A stretch of 64,000 nucleotides of DNA from Escherichia phage REP4, in sequence record OQ174503.1; one strand, written 5' to 3'. The number at the start of each line of letters is the position of its first letter. The stretch's first letter is position 1. The position numbers were made by a program, and so were the translations under genes. Below the pieces are notes generated by a model. The model had not been told where the DNA came from, did not search any database, and saw nothing but the letters and a program-made list of their open reading frames with translations. Below, one piece after another: positions 1,048 to 9,913 of this stretch.

Positions 1048-1356
1048 TTATAGCGTAATCCATTCTCGTACTGTCTGAGTTACTACACGTTCTCGAGGTT
1101 CGACTAGTTCAACAGTCGGAACTGCATAATACCAGTCAGAATGGTAAGAACCTGAGCGAGATTCATTTACAGCCACATGAACATTGTGTTTTGGACTAAA
1201 ATAAACACATTGCCGATATTGGCATTTGCCATCTTGTACCCAGTCTTCTATTTCGATAGGTTTAAGATAATCCGAAAAATCGAAATCATAGTTTTCTGAA
1301 AATGCATCATGGTCTTCGATTATTTCGCTCAGAACTGCATCAACATCGTAAATCAT
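1048..1356 (-). CDS. Hypothetical protein
   Basis: 102-aa ORF, same strand and tight spacing as neighbours. Confidence 0.5.
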   Translation of the reverse strand: MIYDVDAVLSEIIEDHDAFSENYDFDFSDYLKPIEIEDWVQDGKCQYRQCVYFSPKHNVHVAVNESRSGSYHSDWYYAVPTVELVEPRERVVTQTVREWITL

Positions 1357-1835: not shown

Positions 1836-2093
1836 TTATTCCTTAATTCCTAGTACTTGTTTAAAAGTCTCGTCATAATCAAGACTTTGGCCCGTTTGTT
1901 CTTTATGTTTGTATATAATATCACTTACTTCTGATAGCATATTTTTATATGAACGAGTTAAAGCAGATTTAAGCACGCTGTATCTATCAGGAAATTTACC
2001 ATGTTCATTATAATAAGCTATTGCTAATTCACGGACTGCTTTTTCAGCAATCTCCATATATTCTTTACGCTTTTTCATTTTCTTCTCGGTCAA
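1836..2093 (-). CDS. Hypothetical protein
   Basis: 85-aa ORF. Confidence 0.5.
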
Positions 2094-2382
2094 ATCGATG
2101 TTTACAATGACGACATTTATAACGAAGATTACTAGTCTGCCAATGAACTAATTGTACCTGTTCAGTACCACATTTTGGGCAGTTCGGAACATTCTTAGAA
2201 GCCCTTTCGCGGCGTTCAACCATAGCCATAATAGCATCCCAGGCTGGAGGTTTAAAATCTAAATCGTCACAACCATGAATCTTTCCACGCATTTCTAAAT
2301 CGTCTTCTTCACCATCCATAATAATTTTAATTAGACTGGAATTACTTGAAGCTGCAATATCTTCTAATAAGCGCTTTTTCAT
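2065..2382 (-). CDS. Small zinc-ribbon protein (CPKC...CRHC)
   Basis: 105-aa ORF with two CxxC pairs near C-terminus. Confidence 0.55.
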
Positions 2383-3311
2383 TTCAATACCTCAATAGCA
2401 TTTCGTAAACCGTCAGCTTTTGCATTCAGAGCTTTTAATGATTTAGTTTGTTCTGCAATCCGGGCTTCGACTTCTTTCAGACGAGATTTGAGATATTCGC
2501 GTTCTTCTCTTAAGTTATCAACTTTTTCTGCTTTAGGCTCTTTAATAGGCTTAGGCTTATACTCATTAGGGTTCTTCAACTTAATTTGAATGTGAGAACT
2601 GTATAACATTGAACCATTATCTTCGGTTTCATCATACGTTTCTACTACGTCCATGATTCTTAACATCATGCGAAGTTTATAAGACAGCGAACGAATGGTT
2701 TTGTTGCGCTTATTAATTTCTTCGGCTTTCATGGTACCGAGATTACGTGAGTAGTAATAAGGAACCTGGATATCAATTGATAATGATGCGTTACCATTAC
2801 CGGTTGGTTTGAATACTGCAGTAACCCAATCTTTAACATGAACTTTATTTGTACGATCATCGCCGCCTGTGAATAATTTACGTGAATGTTTAAAAAGCAT
2901 ATTCACTTGGTTATTGAATTCACAAGCAAATTTATCAGCAAATTTAGTTTCAGGAATGGTAGATAACCAATCAGCTAAATGGGTCTTTTTAACATCGTTA
3001 ACAATAGTAAATTCAACCAAATCAGTTATAGATGTCGCAGATTTAATGAAGCTTGGCTTCATAAAGTTTTTAATGTTATCGCGAGCTACAGTAGAAGATA
3101 ACATACGAGAACGTTTAAACCATTCAAGCAAATTGCCTAACGAATGAGAATAAGCGTTTTGAGTATCTTTACAGATATGATTTTCCTGGCCAACATATTG
3201 AAGGAAATCACGAAGAATATTATTGATTACTGCTCTGTGCCCGATTTGATAATTACGGTGTTTAGTAATAAGACTGTCAAAATAATCAATATAATGTTTA
3301 CGAGTTTTCAT
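2379..3311 (-). CDS. Hypothetical protein, member A of tandem family (globular N-domain, Pro/Lys linker, C-terminal coiled coil)
   Basis: 310-aa ORF; C-terminal heptad-like ...[44 protein letters not shown]. Confidence 0.6.
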   Translation of the reverse strand: MKTRKHYIDYFDSLITKHRNYQIGHRAVINNILRDFLQYVGQENHICKDTQNAYSHSLGNLLEWFKRSRMLSSTVARDNIKNFMKPSFIKSATSITDLVEFTIVNDVKKTHLADWLSTIPETKFADKFACEFNNQVNMLFKHSRKLFTGGDDRTNKVHVKDWVTAVFKPTGNGNASLSIDIQVPYYYSRNLGTMKAEEINKRNKTIRSLSYKLRMMLRIMDVVETYDETEDNGSMLYSSHIQIKLKNPNEYKPKPIKEPKAEKVDNLREEREYLKSRLKEVEARIAEQTKSLKALNAKADGLRNAIEVLK

Positions 3312-3363
3312 GTTCTTCTCACTTGGTTAATGATTTATACTCCGAGCCATCCTTGGCTTTAAA

Positions 3364-4365
3364 TTACTTAATTAACTGTAAAGCTTGTTCAAGACGATCC
3401 AAGCGATTAACAGATTCTTCCCAAATCCTTTTAGCCTTCTCATATTCTTTCTGTGCTTTATTAGAAATTTCTAGAACTTCCTTATAAGCTTTTTCTAATG
3501 CAATAACTTCTGGACGAATTTCTACCGGTTTAGGCGAATCATCAAGATTATCCATTAGTTCCTCAAGGGTAGTTTCTTCTTTAGGAGTATTCACAATTTC
3601 ATCACATTTTTGTTGGTAAATTTCTTTATCAGTCGGTGAGTACGTACGTTTCACTTCACGAAGGCTAATTATAATTTTATATCCTTCCCAACCACACATA
3701 TTTTTGAAAGGATATGTATGAATACTTTTTACGGTTTCCATACAGCCCAAAGCCGCCTCTAATTGATAAGTTATAGTGCTAGCAATTGAGAAAAATTTAT
3801 TAATATTCTTTTGGTTAGCGTTTGGTGTAAAAAATCCATAATTCACAAAAATAGCTACTTTATTTTTATCAAGCTCATATTCTTTTACGATAACCATATC
3901 AGAAGCCAAAGGATGAATTTGACGATAATCGCCATAACATAATTTAGAAGCTGATTTTAGAATCTGTCCTTTGAAAAGCCTGAAATTACTAATCCAACGA
4001 CGAGTAAAAATATTCTCAGGGTCTTCTTTATTATTAAGATGATAAGAATTAACATCACCGAACCAATTATATCCTACTACATCTTTAGTTCGTTTAATTT
4101 CTTTCCCAAATTTACCAAGAATATCTCTGTTGACTAAGTATGAAAGAAGACGAGACCCTTTAAAGGTTTTCTTAATGTCATCTTTATCTGTACGACTAGA
4201 AATTTCACGAACTTCGTGAATAAATCTGCTGGAAGAAACAATGCTTACATCAATATTATTGAGCCATTGATTGATAATAGAAAGAACACTATTCTGACTA
4301 GACTTAGGTTTAACTTTATCATCAATAACGCTATTGAATGATTTGATATATTCGTTACGAGTCAT
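3364..4365 (-). CDS. Hypothetical protein, member B of tandem family; start moved to internal Met (MTRNEY...) because track start overlaps an early promoter
   Basis: ORF track 3364..4416; promoter-like GTTTAC/TGGTATAAT at 4394-4423. Confidence 0.55.
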   Translation of the reverse strand: MTRNEYIKSFNSVIDDKVKPKSSQNSVLSIINQWLNNIDVSIVSSSRFIHEVREISSRTDKDDIKKTFKGSRLLSYLVNRDILGKFGKEIKRTKDVVGYNWFGDVNSYHLNNKEDPENIFTRRWISNFRLFKGQILKSASKLCYGDYRQIHPLASDMVIVKEYELDKNKVAIFVNYGFFTPNANQKNINKFFSIASTITYQLEAALGCMETVKSIHTYPFKNMCGWEGYKIIISLREVKRTYSPTDKEIYQQKCDEIVNTPKEETTLEELMDNLDDSPKPVEIRPEVIALEKAYKEVLEISNKAQKEYEKAKRIWEESVNRLDRLEQALQLIK

Positions 4366-4393
4366 ATTAATCTCCTCAGTAGAAAGTAAGAAC

Positions 4394-4423
4394 ATTATAC
4401 CACATCCTTGTGGCAAAGTAAAC
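4394..4423 (-). promoter_or_regulatory. T4 early-type promoter (-35 GTTTAC, extended -10 TGGTATAAT)
   Basis: Minus-strand GTTTAC at 4423..4418 and TGGTATAAT ending at 4394. Confidence 0.6.
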
Positions 4424-5445
4424 TAGTTCAGTGCATTTAGTGCATTGTTCAGTTTAGAACGTTGCTTCGTGAGATTTTTGACTTTTTCTTGAGCTTTTTC
4501 TAGCATCTTTTCAGCTTCTAACACTTCATTAGTTGCTTTAACGAGTTCATCATCTACTGCCTTGATAGACTTCTCAATCGCATCCGCGTGCCATTTTTCA
4601 ACAGGTTTAAGACTCGGATTTTCAACAGGAAGAAAATTCGCTTTATTGAATTTCCATGCATCCTTATTACCTGAACTATACATCCAAAATTTAGGATCGT
4701 TTGATGAGTAATTGGATAAATTTAAGATATCTTGCACTTCTTGCTTTTTCTCTTGCGTGACTTCGTCCTTTCTCAAAAAATCGTATTTAAATGAAACGAT
4801 CATATCAAGTTCATACGTTGTTGTGTCTAATTTAAATCGTTCAAAACGAGGTAAAATCTTAGACTGAACAGCGGCAACAACATCCATATACTTAAATGCT
4901 TCTGTCAACTGCGATTTAAGGCATTCGCAAATTGAAAGAGAATTTTTTGTATTAGGTTTAAAGCTAATTCGTGCAGTTCTATTATTTTCTTTTAATGGTC
5001 TTACTTCCATCTGAAGAGTATAACCATCAAATTTCAGATTCTTTAAGTTAATATCAGAACCTTTTAATCGACTCGCAGTTGATAAAATTTGCTTTAATTG
5101 TCTACGGAACAGAGCAATAAATCTCCATTCAATACGATAATGATTTGGATTGAAAAATCCAGATGATAAATCGACCTTACTTTGACCAACGCCTTGAACA
5201 AATAGAGGATTTTTATAATCAATAGTTTTACAGAAATCGGTGAGCTGCTCACGGGCCGTCATTTGTGTAATATACCCTGCTTTACTAAAATTACGCACCC
5301 ATTCACTGCTATTCGTATACTTAAAGTGATGAATAACACGATTAACTTTATCAGGGTCTAAATTATTTTCACACAAAAATGTCATAACATCACGAGTATA
5401 GCTGGCATTACGAACCATATCTTCAATTTGAGAACGAGTTTTCAT
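4423..5445 (-). CDS. Hypothetical protein, member C of tandem family
   Basis: 340-aa ORF, ATG with AAGGAA RBS; shares RxxWRF..LF..QLKQIL-type segment with member B and C-terminal coiled coil. Confidence 0.6.
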   Translation of the reverse strand: MKTRSQIEDMVRNASYTRDVMTFLCENNLDPDKVNRVIHHFKYTNSSEWVRNFSKAGYITQMTAREQLTDFCKTIDYKNPLFVQGVGQSKVDLSSGFFNPNHYRIEWRFIALFRRQLKQILSTASRLKGSDINLKNLKFDGYTLQMEVRPLKENNRTARISFKPNTKNSLSICECLKSQLTEAFKYMDVVAAVQSKILPRFERFKLDTTTYELDMIVSFKYDFLRKDEVTQEKKQEVQDILNLSNYSSNDPKFWMYSSGNKDAWKFNKANFLPVENPSLKPVEKWHADAIEKSIKAVDDELVKATNEVLEAEKMLEKAQEKVKNLTKQRSKLNNALNALN

Positions 5446-5453
5446 GGTATTCC

Positions 5454-6344
5454 TTAAGATTTAAGTAAATCAACGATTTTAATTAACTTTTCACGCTCAG
5501 ATTTAGCTTTACTACTCAATCCAGATAGTCTGAAAATTTCATCGTCATATTGTTGAATAGAAATATTCAGCTCTTCAATTTGCTTATTAAAATAATCAAT
5601 TTGTTCAGAATGTTTTTCGTTACTACGAACTGGTACAGGTTTTGTAGGCAATTTAGTTGAACTGGATTCATCCGGGCGATAAATTAAAATACAACTTGAA
5701 CCAATAGGGCATTTTGCACCAGATGAATATTCTAATGTTCCAGCTTCTTTTAAAACTTCAAAAGCCAAACAGAGATGATGCCCCATATTAACATAATCTG
5801 TAGAGTGAGCTCTGATGTAATAATCATCTCCGCGAATACTGAATTTAAAGCATTTAAGGTCTTCTGTATTATTGGTCTTAAAAATCATTTGTTTATCTAG
5901 ACCTTTAGCTAATCGAGCGCCTAATGCTAATAATCGTCGTTGATTTTCCCACAAATCCGTTATCATTTGATCGAATGATAATTTTGGCATTAGTCGACCA
6001 TAAAGGTCATATCCTTTATTATAATTACGAAGGATTTCGCTCGCATTAATACGAGACAACGCTCCAATTTTATTAAGGGCTTTCATAATGCGATTAGATA
6101 AACTCATTCCAGACCCGGTTGTTCGCTGCAAATGTTTTTCTAATCCAAATCCAATATCAACTTTAAACTTATCTAAAATTTCTGCATGAACATCTTTGTC
6201 GATAACATTCAAATCCAAAGTTGGGTTAAATCTATGAAAAAATTTATCTGGCTCTCCACGGCGAAGTACAGTCCATTCATTCATCGTTTTTTTATTAACT
6301 AATGATTTAATTACTGCATTGACATTATTAATTACTACTGACAT
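5454..6344 (-). CDS. Hypothetical protein, member D of tandem family (start at internal Met MSVVINN... after upstream stop)
   Basis: ORF track 5454..6380; C-terminal coiled coil ...KSEREKLIKIVDLLKS. Confidence 0.55.
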   Translation of the reverse strand: MSVVINNVNAVIKSLVNKKTMNEWTVLRRGEPDKFFHRFNPTLDLNVIDKDVHAEILDKFKVDIGFGLEKHLQRTTGSGMSLSNRIMKALNKIGALSRINASEILRNYNKGYDLYGRLMPKLSFDQMITDLWENQRRLLALGARLAKGLDKQMIFKTNNTEDLKCFKFSIRGDDYYIRAHSTDYVNMGHHLCLAFEVLKEAGTLEYSSGAKCPIGSSCILIYRPDESSSTKLPTKPVPVRSNEKHSEQIDYFNKQIEELNISIQQYDDEIFRLSGLSSKAKSEREKLIKIVDLLKS

Positions 6345-6817: not shown

Positions 6818-7344
6818 TTATGCGAGTACCGTCTTTAACCGTTCTTCAAACTTCCGAAGAGTATTTTGGCGTTCAGCTCTTTGCTTTTTGTAAGTTTCAA
6901 TACGCTCTGAAATGAGAGAGTATCGTTCATTTACTGATTCTTTCATAAAATCAGGAATTTCACGAGAAGCTTTAATCTCATCAAATTTATCAATAACAGC
7001 TTGCTCTTCAGCAATTAAGTTATCATACATTAAAATATCTTTCTTGATGAACTCAATATCTTCTTGAGTTACACGAGATAATTTAGATGCTTTATCCTTT
7101 TTGTACTGTTCGTTAGTATCACGAGACCAGTGTAATGTACGATTTTTATTCGTATTTTTGTAAATTTCGACAATACCAATCTCATCAATAATAACGATCC
7201 AATTCCAACGGGATTTGTAAATTTGTCCTCCATCAACAGTGATTTCACCTCCGATTGAGATGTCGTTAAAGAACTTACTCTGTGCTTCAGATTTAAATTT
7301 ACCATCGTTGTAATTTACCAGGTTGAAAATATCTTTAGCGTTCA
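6818..7344 (-). CDS. Hypothetical protein with C-terminal coiled coil
   Basis: Track ORF 6818..7405 trimmed to internal ATG (MNAKDIF...) preceded by GGAGG RBS; track start overlaps promoter. Confidence 0.55.
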
Positions 7345-7370
7345 TTTTTGTTCCTCCGTAGTTGATAGTT

Positions 7371-8867: not shown

Positions 8868-8898
8868 AAATAAAAAAAAGGGAGCCCGAAGGCTCCCT
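8868..8898 (-). terminator. Intrinsic terminator after the nucleotidyltransferase gene
   Basis: Hairpin GGGAGCC-CGAA-GGCTCCC followed by a U-tract on the minus strand. Confidence 0.7.
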
Positions 8899-8899
8899 A

Positions 8900-9913
8900 T
8901 CATTTATAATAACTTCGGTGGTTTTCAAGATAAACCCTCTCAAGGAAGTCATCCCAGAAACCCATGTCTACTTTTTGCTGCATACCGTTCTTAGAAGCTT
9001 CAATGGATGCTGCTTCTACTTGATCGACCACATCTTCCAAAAACTCTTGAACAGTTTTAAATGGATGTTTACCCAGCTTCACGTCGAGAATAAATGGAGC
9101 GTCTTGAAGTGGATAAACTAAGTCACCAGTTTTGTAAATTTCCAATAGTTGGAGTCCACCACGGCAAGCATGACTAAGAGCTTTCCAGTCAATGCCCTCA
9201 TTCGCTTCAGCCTTACGAGCACGTTCGCCGTATTCAGCATCTAATTTGTTCAGTGACTGCTTAAGCTCAATAAGAGAAAGTGTTGTCTGATATTTACGAC
9301 CCAACACAGTGTAAAACGTTTGTGGACCTGTTTTCTCATGATTATGGAATACCCATTCGCAGAACTCGTTCTCTGGAAGACGATGCTTAATATCTTCAAC
9401 TTTAGTTCGACGTTGCTTAATAGAACCATCTTCTTGGTAATCAACCCATTGCTCAGGGATTTGATTAACTACTTTCAATACATCACGTAATGCGGCCAAA
9501 CGAGAACCCTTAACACCATATTTAGAAGCTTGCTTGCGAACATATCCTAAATAGGATTTCATGTTAGTTGTATAAAACCGTGAACGATTGTCTTGAATAA
9601 ACTTCCATACATCAGGCAAATCAGATTTAACTACCAGTTCAGGTGGAGTGTGGAGCATATCCAATGCTACAGTTTCACCATCTGCTGCTAATTTAAAGAA
9701 ATATTTAAGACTGTATAGTTCATGGTCAATATCATCTTTGGTGTTTTTAGATGATGTGTTGTTAGTGTTTTTACTCATATGCTCTTTAACATTTCCGATA
9801 AGAATATCACGAGCAGGAGGAACAAAGATTTCTTTAAAATCTACATCAGATTCTGGAGTAGAAGTTCCATAAAGATGACTACCGAAATAGCTTTTCATTA
9901 CTGTTTTCATCAT
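8900..9913 (-). CDS. Pol-beta superfamily nucleotidyltransferase
   Basis: 337-aa protein with canonical GSx3Gx5SDxD motif (GSHLYGTSTPESDVDF) near N-terminus. Confidence 0.65.
   Translation of the reverse strand: MMKTVMKSYFGSHLYGTSTPESDVDFKEIFVPPARDILIGNVKEHMSKNTNNTSSKNTKDDIDHELYSLKYFFKLAADGETVALDMLHTPPELVVKSDLPDVWKFIQDNRSRFYTTNMKSYLGYVRKQASKYGVKGSRLAALRDVLKVVNQIPEQWVDYQEDGSIKQRRTKVEDIKHRLPENEFCEWVFHNHEKTGPQTFYTVLGRKYQTTLSLIELKQSLNKLDAEYGERARKAEANEGIDWKALSHACRGGLQLLEIYKTGDLVYPLQDAPFILDVKLGKHPFKTVQEFLEDVVDQVEAASIEASKNGMQQKVDMGFWDDFLERVYLENHRSYYK

Follow-up and report, generated by a model that had tools for sequence, protein, structure and literature searches.

Anti-defence genes of T4-like phages

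The anti-defence islands of T4-like phages, such as the anti-toxin-antitoxin island dmd-tifA-adfA and 49.2/nrdC.1/nrdC.8, consist of non-essential, variable, small-to-medium genes, each of which counters one host defence and which, where the timing has been established, are early genes. Among the genes around nrdC, nrdC.1 inhibits Septu and bas37_0203 inhibits Druantia III (bioRxiv 10.1101/2025.11.20.689424), the latter gene being the orthologue of nrdC.8 according to the gene table of that report and the GenBank record of phage KarlGJung (Bas37), and gp49.2 inhibits OLD, as reported for the T6 protein (PMC13096335). Furthermore, when the T4 early gene nrdC.5 is supplied in trans by itself, a T4 deletion mutant regains the ability to plate on E. 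coli that carries dsr1, a SIR2-domain defence gene from ECOR17 (PMC9391042). Here we analyze the four tandem genes that include the counterpart of nrdC.5 in a 64,000-nucleotide stretch of the genome of Escherichia phage REP4, a Tequatrovirus (OQ174503.1; hereafter, the window). The products of these genes, which we denote A, B, C and D (open reading frames [ORFs] 2379-3311, 3364-4365, 4423-5445 and 5454-6344, respectively), are shown to be diverged paralogues within one protein family restricted to T4-like phages (Straboviridae), and nrdC.3, nrdC.4 and nrdC.6 are probably three new phage anti-defence genes.

The closest described protein is T4 NrdC.5 (DUF7235). The heads, that is, the N-terminal regions, of A and B are detectable homologues of the NrdC.5 head, D has the fold of B, and the layout of linker and heptad tail is common to all four proteins. 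In contrast, A, B and D belong to other sequence families (PF26897 and PF26899; phrog_1435 and phrog_2257), their heads show about 20% identity or less, and anti-Dsr1 activity is known for T4 NrdC.5 alone. Given this divergence of the heads, the same target is not assumed for A, B and D. A functional analogue of nrdC.5 is DSAD1, a phage inhibitor of DSR2 that binds the sensor domain of this SIR2 defence protein (PMC10973363, PMC10981675, PMC11087589): each is a phage protein acting against a defence-associated sirtuin, and DSAD1 serves as a model for inhibition by direct binding. No sequence or fold similarity between the family and DSAD1 was found.

Like the characterized genes, the nrdC.3-nrdC.6 array sits inside an anti-defence island. 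It differs from the known islands in that their genes are mostly unrelated, whereas the array consists of four neighbouring paralogues of one modular design, with relatives spread over much of Straboviridae. The genes themselves, the function of nrdC.5 and the grouping of A with B in PHROGs are already known. In the searchable literature, we found nothing that unites A-D and the single-copy genes of other genera as one head/linker/coiled-coil family, nor any proposal that nrdC.3, nrdC.4 and nrdC.6 are paralogous to a protein with such a role in counter-defence.

Identity of the four genes

A T4-type phage region, transcribed from the minus strand, makes up the first 10 kb of the window. At the nucleotide level, the 4-kb stretch with the array is 90-96% identical to sequences in 656 phage records, nearly all from Tequatrovirus, and in the matching Tequatrovirus records, the array genes are annotated as nrdC.3, nrdC.4, nrdC.5 and nrdC.6. 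An earlier reading of the sequence alone (hereafter, the original prediction) had delineated four tandem ORFs in this stretch, and all four are found exactly at the positions it gave, on the minus strand. Gene A (2379..3311), the nrdC.3 orthologue, encodes 310 amino acids (aa) and matches phrog_1435 over the full length (E = 7.7e-110). Gene B (3364..4365), the nrdC.4 orthologue, encodes 333 aa counted from the ATG, with alternative longer starts possible up to 4416, and matches the same family (E = 1.3e-164); A and B cover positions 1-334 of the profile, that is, its full length. Gene C (4423..5445), the nrdC.5 orthologue of 340 aa, belongs to phrog_2351 and to Pfam DUF7235 (PF23882). Its score with the Pfam profile, 426.8 bits, exceeds the gathering cut-off of 30 (E = 7e-128), and the alignment runs from residue 1 to 340 and from profile position 1 to 307. 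Gene D (5454..6344), the nrdC.6 orthologue, encodes 296 aa from the ATG, a GTG-start extension reaching 6380, and falls into phrog_2257 (E = 4.7e-152). PF26897 is the precomputed label on all B homologues, and PF26899 is the label on all 105 D homologues. Neither phrog_1435 nor DUF7235/phrog_2351 nor phrog_2257 has an assigned function.

C is 96.2% identical over 340 aa to NrdC.5 of T4 GT7, and the gene order is the same. Thus, the 96% identity and the conserved position show that C is the orthologue of the published anti-Dsr1 gene. In many phage records, nrdC.3-nrdC.6, as well as nrdC.10 and nrdC.11, carry the label 'thioredoxin'. None of A-D matches a thioredoxin family in Pfam or NCBIfam scans, and the thioredoxin fold is not seen in the structural models of B and D, so for nrdC.3-nrdC.6, the name seems to have been carried over from the neighbouring nrdC.

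Homology of A, B, C and D

A plain BLASTP comparison among A-D and seven neighbouring proteins detects a single pair, A-B. The homology of these two proteins is unequivocal in profile comparison (hhalign probability of 98%, E = 4e-14, over ~230 head residues). With the shallow family alignments of the first hhalign round, the B-C match was marginal and D gave no signal. The profile of C was then enlarged with relatives from Gaprivervirus, Dhakavirus, Mosigvirus, phiE142-type Tequatrovirus and metagenomes, and the tails were removed. The A/B head profile aligns with the C head over 134 collinear columns (hhalign P = 9e-5), with a score of 38.0 compared to 12.9 ± 2.4 (maximum 23.2) for column-shuffled controls, none of which reached the observed value (0/200, z = 10.6). 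The aligned regions include a helix pair (FTRRWISNFRLFKGQILKSASKL against YRIEWRFIALFRRQLKQILSTASRL) and a helix that ends with MDVV or METV. The original prediction had singled out a segment shared by B (FTRRWISNFRLFKGQIL) and C (YRIEWRFIALFRRQLKQIL) along with an MDVV segment common to A and C; both lie within this significant alignment, in equivalent structural elements, with METV being the counterpart of MDVV in B.

For D, the sequence profiles yield marginal matches (8/200 shuffles for A/B-D and 3/200 for C-D; hhalign P = 0.014-0.037), and these weak alignments agree with one another in position. The relationship becomes apparent at the level of predicted structure. AlphaFold2 monomer models were made for B (alignment of 31 sequences, pLDDT 82.7) and D (35 sequences, pLDDT 76.9). 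In a Foldseek search of BFVD, the B model retrieves nrdC.6 of phage JS10 (E = 2.2e-5, probability 1.0) and an nrdC.3-type protein (E = 5e-8), and the B and D models have common neighbours, namely E5E4A2 of phage Acj61 and A0A2S1GM98 of Erwinia phage Cronus. Judged by these models, D is predicted to have the same head fold as B. The claim of a diverging tandem family is therefore borne out for A-B and A/B-C by profiles and shuffles and for D by the fold. The motif [AGS][AS][KR]K?L.{1,3}G.?D occurs within the whole window in B, C and D only, at equivalent positions; it was defined post hoc, lacks conservation across the families (7/27, 10/18 and 31/32 members), and is given little weight.

Shared head, linker and heptad tail architecture

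All four proteins consist of a fast-evolving alpha/beta head of ~225-270 aa, a flexible linker with Pro and Lys and an amphipathic C-terminal heptad tail of 45-50 residues. In A, these are residues 1-250 (nt 2562-3311), 251-264 (nt 2520-2561) and 265-310 (nt 2382-2519); in B, the head spans 1-245 (nt 3631-4365), the linker 246-284 (nt 3514-3630) and the tail helix 285-333 (nt 3367-3513); in C, the boundaries are 1-270 (nt 4636-5445), 271-292 (nt 4570-4635) and 293-340 (nt 4426-4569); and in D, a head of 1-225 (nt 5670-6344) and a linker of 226-242 (nt 5619-5669) are followed by a kinked tail helix, 243-296 (nt 5457-5618). In the models of B and D, the elements of the head come in one common order. 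An N-terminal helical bundle leads into a short beta-meander, which is followed by a helix pair and a beta-hairpin, and the head closes with a further helix and another beta-hairpin. After the head comes a low-confidence linker (about 250-285 in B, 228-242 in D) and then a long C-terminal helix, predicted at 285-332 in B and, with a conserved kink, at 243-295 in D.

Every linker contains a KP[V/I] motif (KPKPIKEPK in A, SPKPVEIRPE in B, SLKPVEKWHAD in C, PTKPVPVRSNEK in D). The last 45 residues of A-D form an unbroken heptad pattern with hydrophobic residues at 11-12 of the 13 a/d positions (12 in C, 11 in each of A, B and D), and the register counted from the C-terminus is identical in the four proteins. 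Composition-preserving shuffles reach the observed heptad value in 0 (A), 6 (B), 0 (C) and 1 (D) cases out of 2000 each. The tails of nrdC.10 and nrdC.11, used as controls, lack the heptad signal. Thus, by sequence, the tails of all four proteins have the features of a coiled coil, hydrophobic a/d positions with no break over at least five heptads, and a long helix is predicted in the two models. The shared architecture, which is confirmed to be far above the chance expectation, is the one that the original prediction had described as a globular head, a Pro/Lys linker and a heptad C-terminus; the heptad statistics also agree with its proposal that the C-terminal helices are coiled coils. An amphipathic helix also forms the C-terminus of the neighbouring nrdC.8 orthologue, where the heptad signal is weaker (24/2000 shuffles).

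Among distant members, the best-conserved parts are the linker motif and the tail, including the solvent-facing positions: conservation amounts to 37% in the head and 65% in the tail of D, and to 20% in the head and 42% in the linker of C. The dN/dS of the tail is lower than that of the head in A, B and D. The common tail that had been anticipated is, accordingly, a conserved heptad helix, which has diverged less than the head does in three families out of four. This conservation holds within families, not between them, and the family-specific tail sequences make a single docking partner common to A-D unlikely.

Range of the family across T4-like phages

All significant Foldseek matches are T4-like phage proteins of ~280-375 aa without a known function, from phages infecting Escherichia, Yersinia, Acinetobacter, Erwinia, Serratia, Klebsiella, Enterobacter, Pectobacterium and Citrobacter. 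In the genomic regions fetched, genes of the size typical of the family, with a heptad-helix end (...A-hydrophobic-x-x-L terminus), are located directly upstream of nrdC. From fold searches and synteny combined, one to four copies reside beside nrdC in about ten Straboviridae genera: four in T4-type Tequatrovirus; three in phiE142-type Tequatrovirus, Mosigvirus, Gaprivervirus and Dhakavirus; and one in Jiaodavirus, Karamvirus, Moonvirus and Zedzedvirus. The count is zero in Aeromonas phage Aes012. Between nrdC.11 and gp49, where the family is found in other T4-like phages, this phage (L031 4774-6246) encodes a nicotinamide phosphoribosyltransferase. The enzyme is part of the NAD+-reconstitution route by which phages resist NAD-depleting defences, another answer to the type of threat that nrdC.5 counters.

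The head hidden Markov models (HMMs) gave no match to the ORFs of Jiaodavirus, Karamvirus, Moonvirus, Zedzedvirus and Tulanevirus. From the position, size, heptad tail and Foldseek matches to proteins of related phages, we infer that the single-copy genes of the distant genera belong to the family. The individual sequence families are very narrow: an exhaustive HMMER search with C recovers 12 representatives among 1.84 billion, none of them bridging to other families. Fold searches with the B and D models and profile scans reveal no solved structure or characterized domain resembling the family, and there is no profile match above the curated cut-off to the N-terminal SAM-like domain of tyrosine recombinases. 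A BFVD match in Yersinia phage fHe-Yen9-01 was considered as C-type by way of P0225 and dropped, P0225 having no close match in isolated phages.

Variability and selection

In a comparison of eight Tequatrovirus loci, no part of the region varies more than the array. The flanking nrdC.1 and nrdC.8-nrdC.11 are 98-99% identical to the window in T4-type loci, and the array genes are 94-98% (D), 91-97% (C), 88-92% (B) and 62-89% (A) identical in Tequatrovirus. Two of the eight loci lack B, and in another one, a frameshift divides it. A is a mosaic, with the first ~60 residues resembling the T4 type and the remainder the phiE142/Mosigvirus type, and its best identity to any isolate is 89%. Isolate records with a gene of the respective family number 653 (A-type), 554 (B), 587 (C) and 741 (D), each falling into distinct identity classes. 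The dN/dS values are 0.23 (A), 0.22 (B), 0.17 (C) and 0.09 (D) compared to 0.03-0.07 for nrdC.8-nrdC.11, which indicates relaxed constraint or faster evolution in the array. In A and B, dN is elevated and so is dS, an indication that diverged alleles have been exchanged. The variability of the array thus comes from allele replacement, mosaicism and gene loss, and the copy number appears to range from 0 to 4 across genera.

Several individual variants are of note. Array-like variability extends to nrdC.2 (2065-2382, minus strand; 105 aa, with CxxC...CxxC zinc-ribbon-like motifs), which is 53-94% identical among Tequatrovirus loci, with dS of ~0.8. P0056 is an nrdC.5-nrdC.3 fusion that deletes nrdC.4, with the joint at a short common FN(K/N)-VN sequence. 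The nrdC.6 product of Shigella phage Sf25 (P0120) contains an internal tandem duplication of 82 residues and reaches 378 aa. In one IMG/VR Tequatrovirus (L004 6916-7948), nrdC.4 is in two ORFs. Finally, an 803-bp metagenomic contig (L033) encodes a 173-aa ORF (P0230) in which an unrelated N-terminus of 110 residues precedes the nrdC.5 tail; the shared DNA is 97.5% identical to the window, and the promoter gap and the nrdC.4 start come after P0230. This ORF is either a real head replacement that retains the tail or an assembly chimera.

Genomic setting

The gp49.2 orthologue (1048-1356, minus strand; 99% identical to T4) and the nrdC.1 orthologue (1836-2078, minus strand; 97.5% to T4) lie on either side of nrdC. 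Because of this arrangement, the segment from ~1 to 7.4 kb of the window looks like an anti-defence island. The nrdC.8 orthologue (6818-7345, minus strand; 175 aa) is 98.9% identical to bas37_0203; the latter was considered as a member of the array and ruled out, being the orthologue of this 175-aa neighbour. An unrelated 71-aa ORF at 1359-1574 takes the place of T4 gene 49.3. Transposon screens of T4 and Bas37 score nrdC.3-nrdC.6 as non-essential, along with the Bas37 orthologues, among which 0198, 0199 and 0201 correspond to nrdC.3, nrdC.4 and nrdC.6 (bioRxiv 10.1101/2025.11.20.689424).

An anti-defence role of the family is supported by experiment for one member, nrdC.5. The original prediction had read the array as arms-race genes, such as host-takeover or anti-defence factors. 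The activity of nrdC.5 against Dsr1 and the neighbourhood of nrdC.1, nrdC.8 and gp49.2 speak for the anti-defence part of the claim; gene-wide positive selection does not appear.

Proposed mechanism and alternatives

We lean towards the interpretation that A-D, as diverged Straboviridae paralogues, are each an inhibitor or decoy of a different host immune protein. Under this scenario, each paralogue would act stoichiometrically on one distinct host protein: the head would recognize the target by direct binding, and the tail would self-associate as a coiled coil, yielding a multivalent inhibitor that fits oligomeric defence proteins. C would neutralize the SIR2 NADase defence Dsr1, and A, B and D may neutralize other defences.

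Several observations weigh against this interpretation. The kinship of D to A-C depends on predicted structures, those of B and D, given the marginal sequence profiles. Gene-wide positive selection was looked for in A-D and not found, with dN/dS at 0.09-0.23. The tail sequences are family-specific. A target has been demonstrated for none of A, B and D, and no significant conditional effect is seen for these genes in the HIDEN-SEQ rows and comparisons examined. That nrdC.5 would bind Dsr1 directly is an assumption by analogy with DSAD1 and DSR2, and the oligomerization of the tails is likewise a proposal, the models being of monomers.

A more ambitious version, which we regard as tentative and rather doubtful, is that the family represents a modular, diversifying inhibitor scaffold, in which a conserved linker and coiled-coil tail would provide a constant function in oligomerization or docking, and the head would have been duplicated, swapped and re-tuned time and again to recognize different bacterial immune sensors. 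If so, nrdC.3, nrdC.4 and nrdC.6 would be three undiscovered anti-defence proteins, and the single-copy nrdC-adjacent genes of Klebsiella, Enterobacter, Citrobacter and Acinetobacter phages would be anti-defence genes as well.

Among the alternatives, the one that fares best, albeit an unlikely one in our assessment, is that the array encodes accessory modulators of host takeover or physiology (transcription, nucleoid or metabolism) and that the anti-Dsr1 effect of nrdC.5 is indirect. The missing targets of A, B and D and the lack of a defence-dependent phenotype in the HIDEN-SEQ rows examined would fit such a role, as would the overall purifying selection and the absence of similarity between the heads and known inhibitors. 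However, the array genes are dispensable in laboratory hosts, they are set among four experimentally supported anti-defence genes, and their variation by presence/absence and allele swaps is that of counter-defence loci. Moreover, the rescue by nrdC.5 is specific to cloned dsr1 (PMC9391042).

It is improbable, to a greater degree, that A-D form one hetero-oligomeric complex, for example, an anti-Dsr1 or host-takeover machine, in which the tails bundle the four heads. Adjacent, co-oriented genes whose tails are equal in length, are alike in the heptad register from the C-terminus and are conserved within families at surface positions beyond the a/d core speak for such a complex, but individual members have been lost or replaced without the others: 3/8 Tequatrovirus loci lack B or have it split, an A-type gene is accompanied in phiE142-type phages by highly divergent alleles of the C and D types, and other genera carry 1-3 copies. 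A promoter-like site within the array also suggests that B and A are expressed apart, and nrdC.5 alone in trans sufficed (PMC9391042), with a T4 mutant ('evo 3') that may or may not have kept the paralogues. The independent loss and replacement of members, along with this sufficiency, weigh against an obligate hetero-complex. Finally, the possibility that the heads are unrelated and the amphipathic-helix ends convergent or coincidental, in keeping with the single BLASTP pair and the placement of A-D in three families by Pfam and PHROGs, is hardly credible and largely refuted for A, B and C, considering the z-score of 10.6 for the heads-only A/B-C alignment, the identical order of secondary structure elements in the B and D models, the reciprocal Foldseek links and common neighbours, all of them Straboviridae proteins of ~300-375 aa, and the mutually consistent positions of the marginal D alignments.

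T4 is the best-studied lytic phage, and nrdC.3, nrdC.4 and nrdC.6 are still without a function. As paralogues of nrdC.5 that lie amid verified anti-defence genes, they now become specific candidates. The family also provides a search image, a gene for a protein of ~300-390 aa upstream of nrdC with a heptad-helix end. With it, equivalents that escape sequence searches could be recognized in the therapeutic T4-like phages that infect Klebsiella, Enterobacter and Acinetobacter. The shared design further poses a question of structure and function, namely, whether the tails oligomerize and whether they are needed.

Expression signals

The 57-nt gap between C and B contains a sigma-70 or T4-early-type promoter-like site (4394..4422, minus strand; TTTACT, a 17-nt spacer and TGnTATAAT; 10/12 match with TG). 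It comes immediately behind the C stop codon, and GAGGAG and then the ATG of B at 4365 come next. This is the best minus-strand promoter-like match of the region. In total, the region has 38 promoter-like sites compared to 37.2 expected by chance, not above the chance level, and therefore, the case for this site is made by its position and quality only. The placement favours the 333-aa form of B. On sequence grounds, the site suggests that the expression of B and A can be uncoupled from that of C and D.

Farther along the region, where nrdC.11 meets nrdC.10, positions 8879-8898 contain a GC-rich hairpin that is strong, AGGGAGCC-TTCG-GGCTCCCT, with a T-run behind it on the minus strand. The hairpin lies at the 3' end of nrdC.11, whose stop codon is at 8900-8902; it is likely to be an intrinsic terminator or an RNA-stability element.

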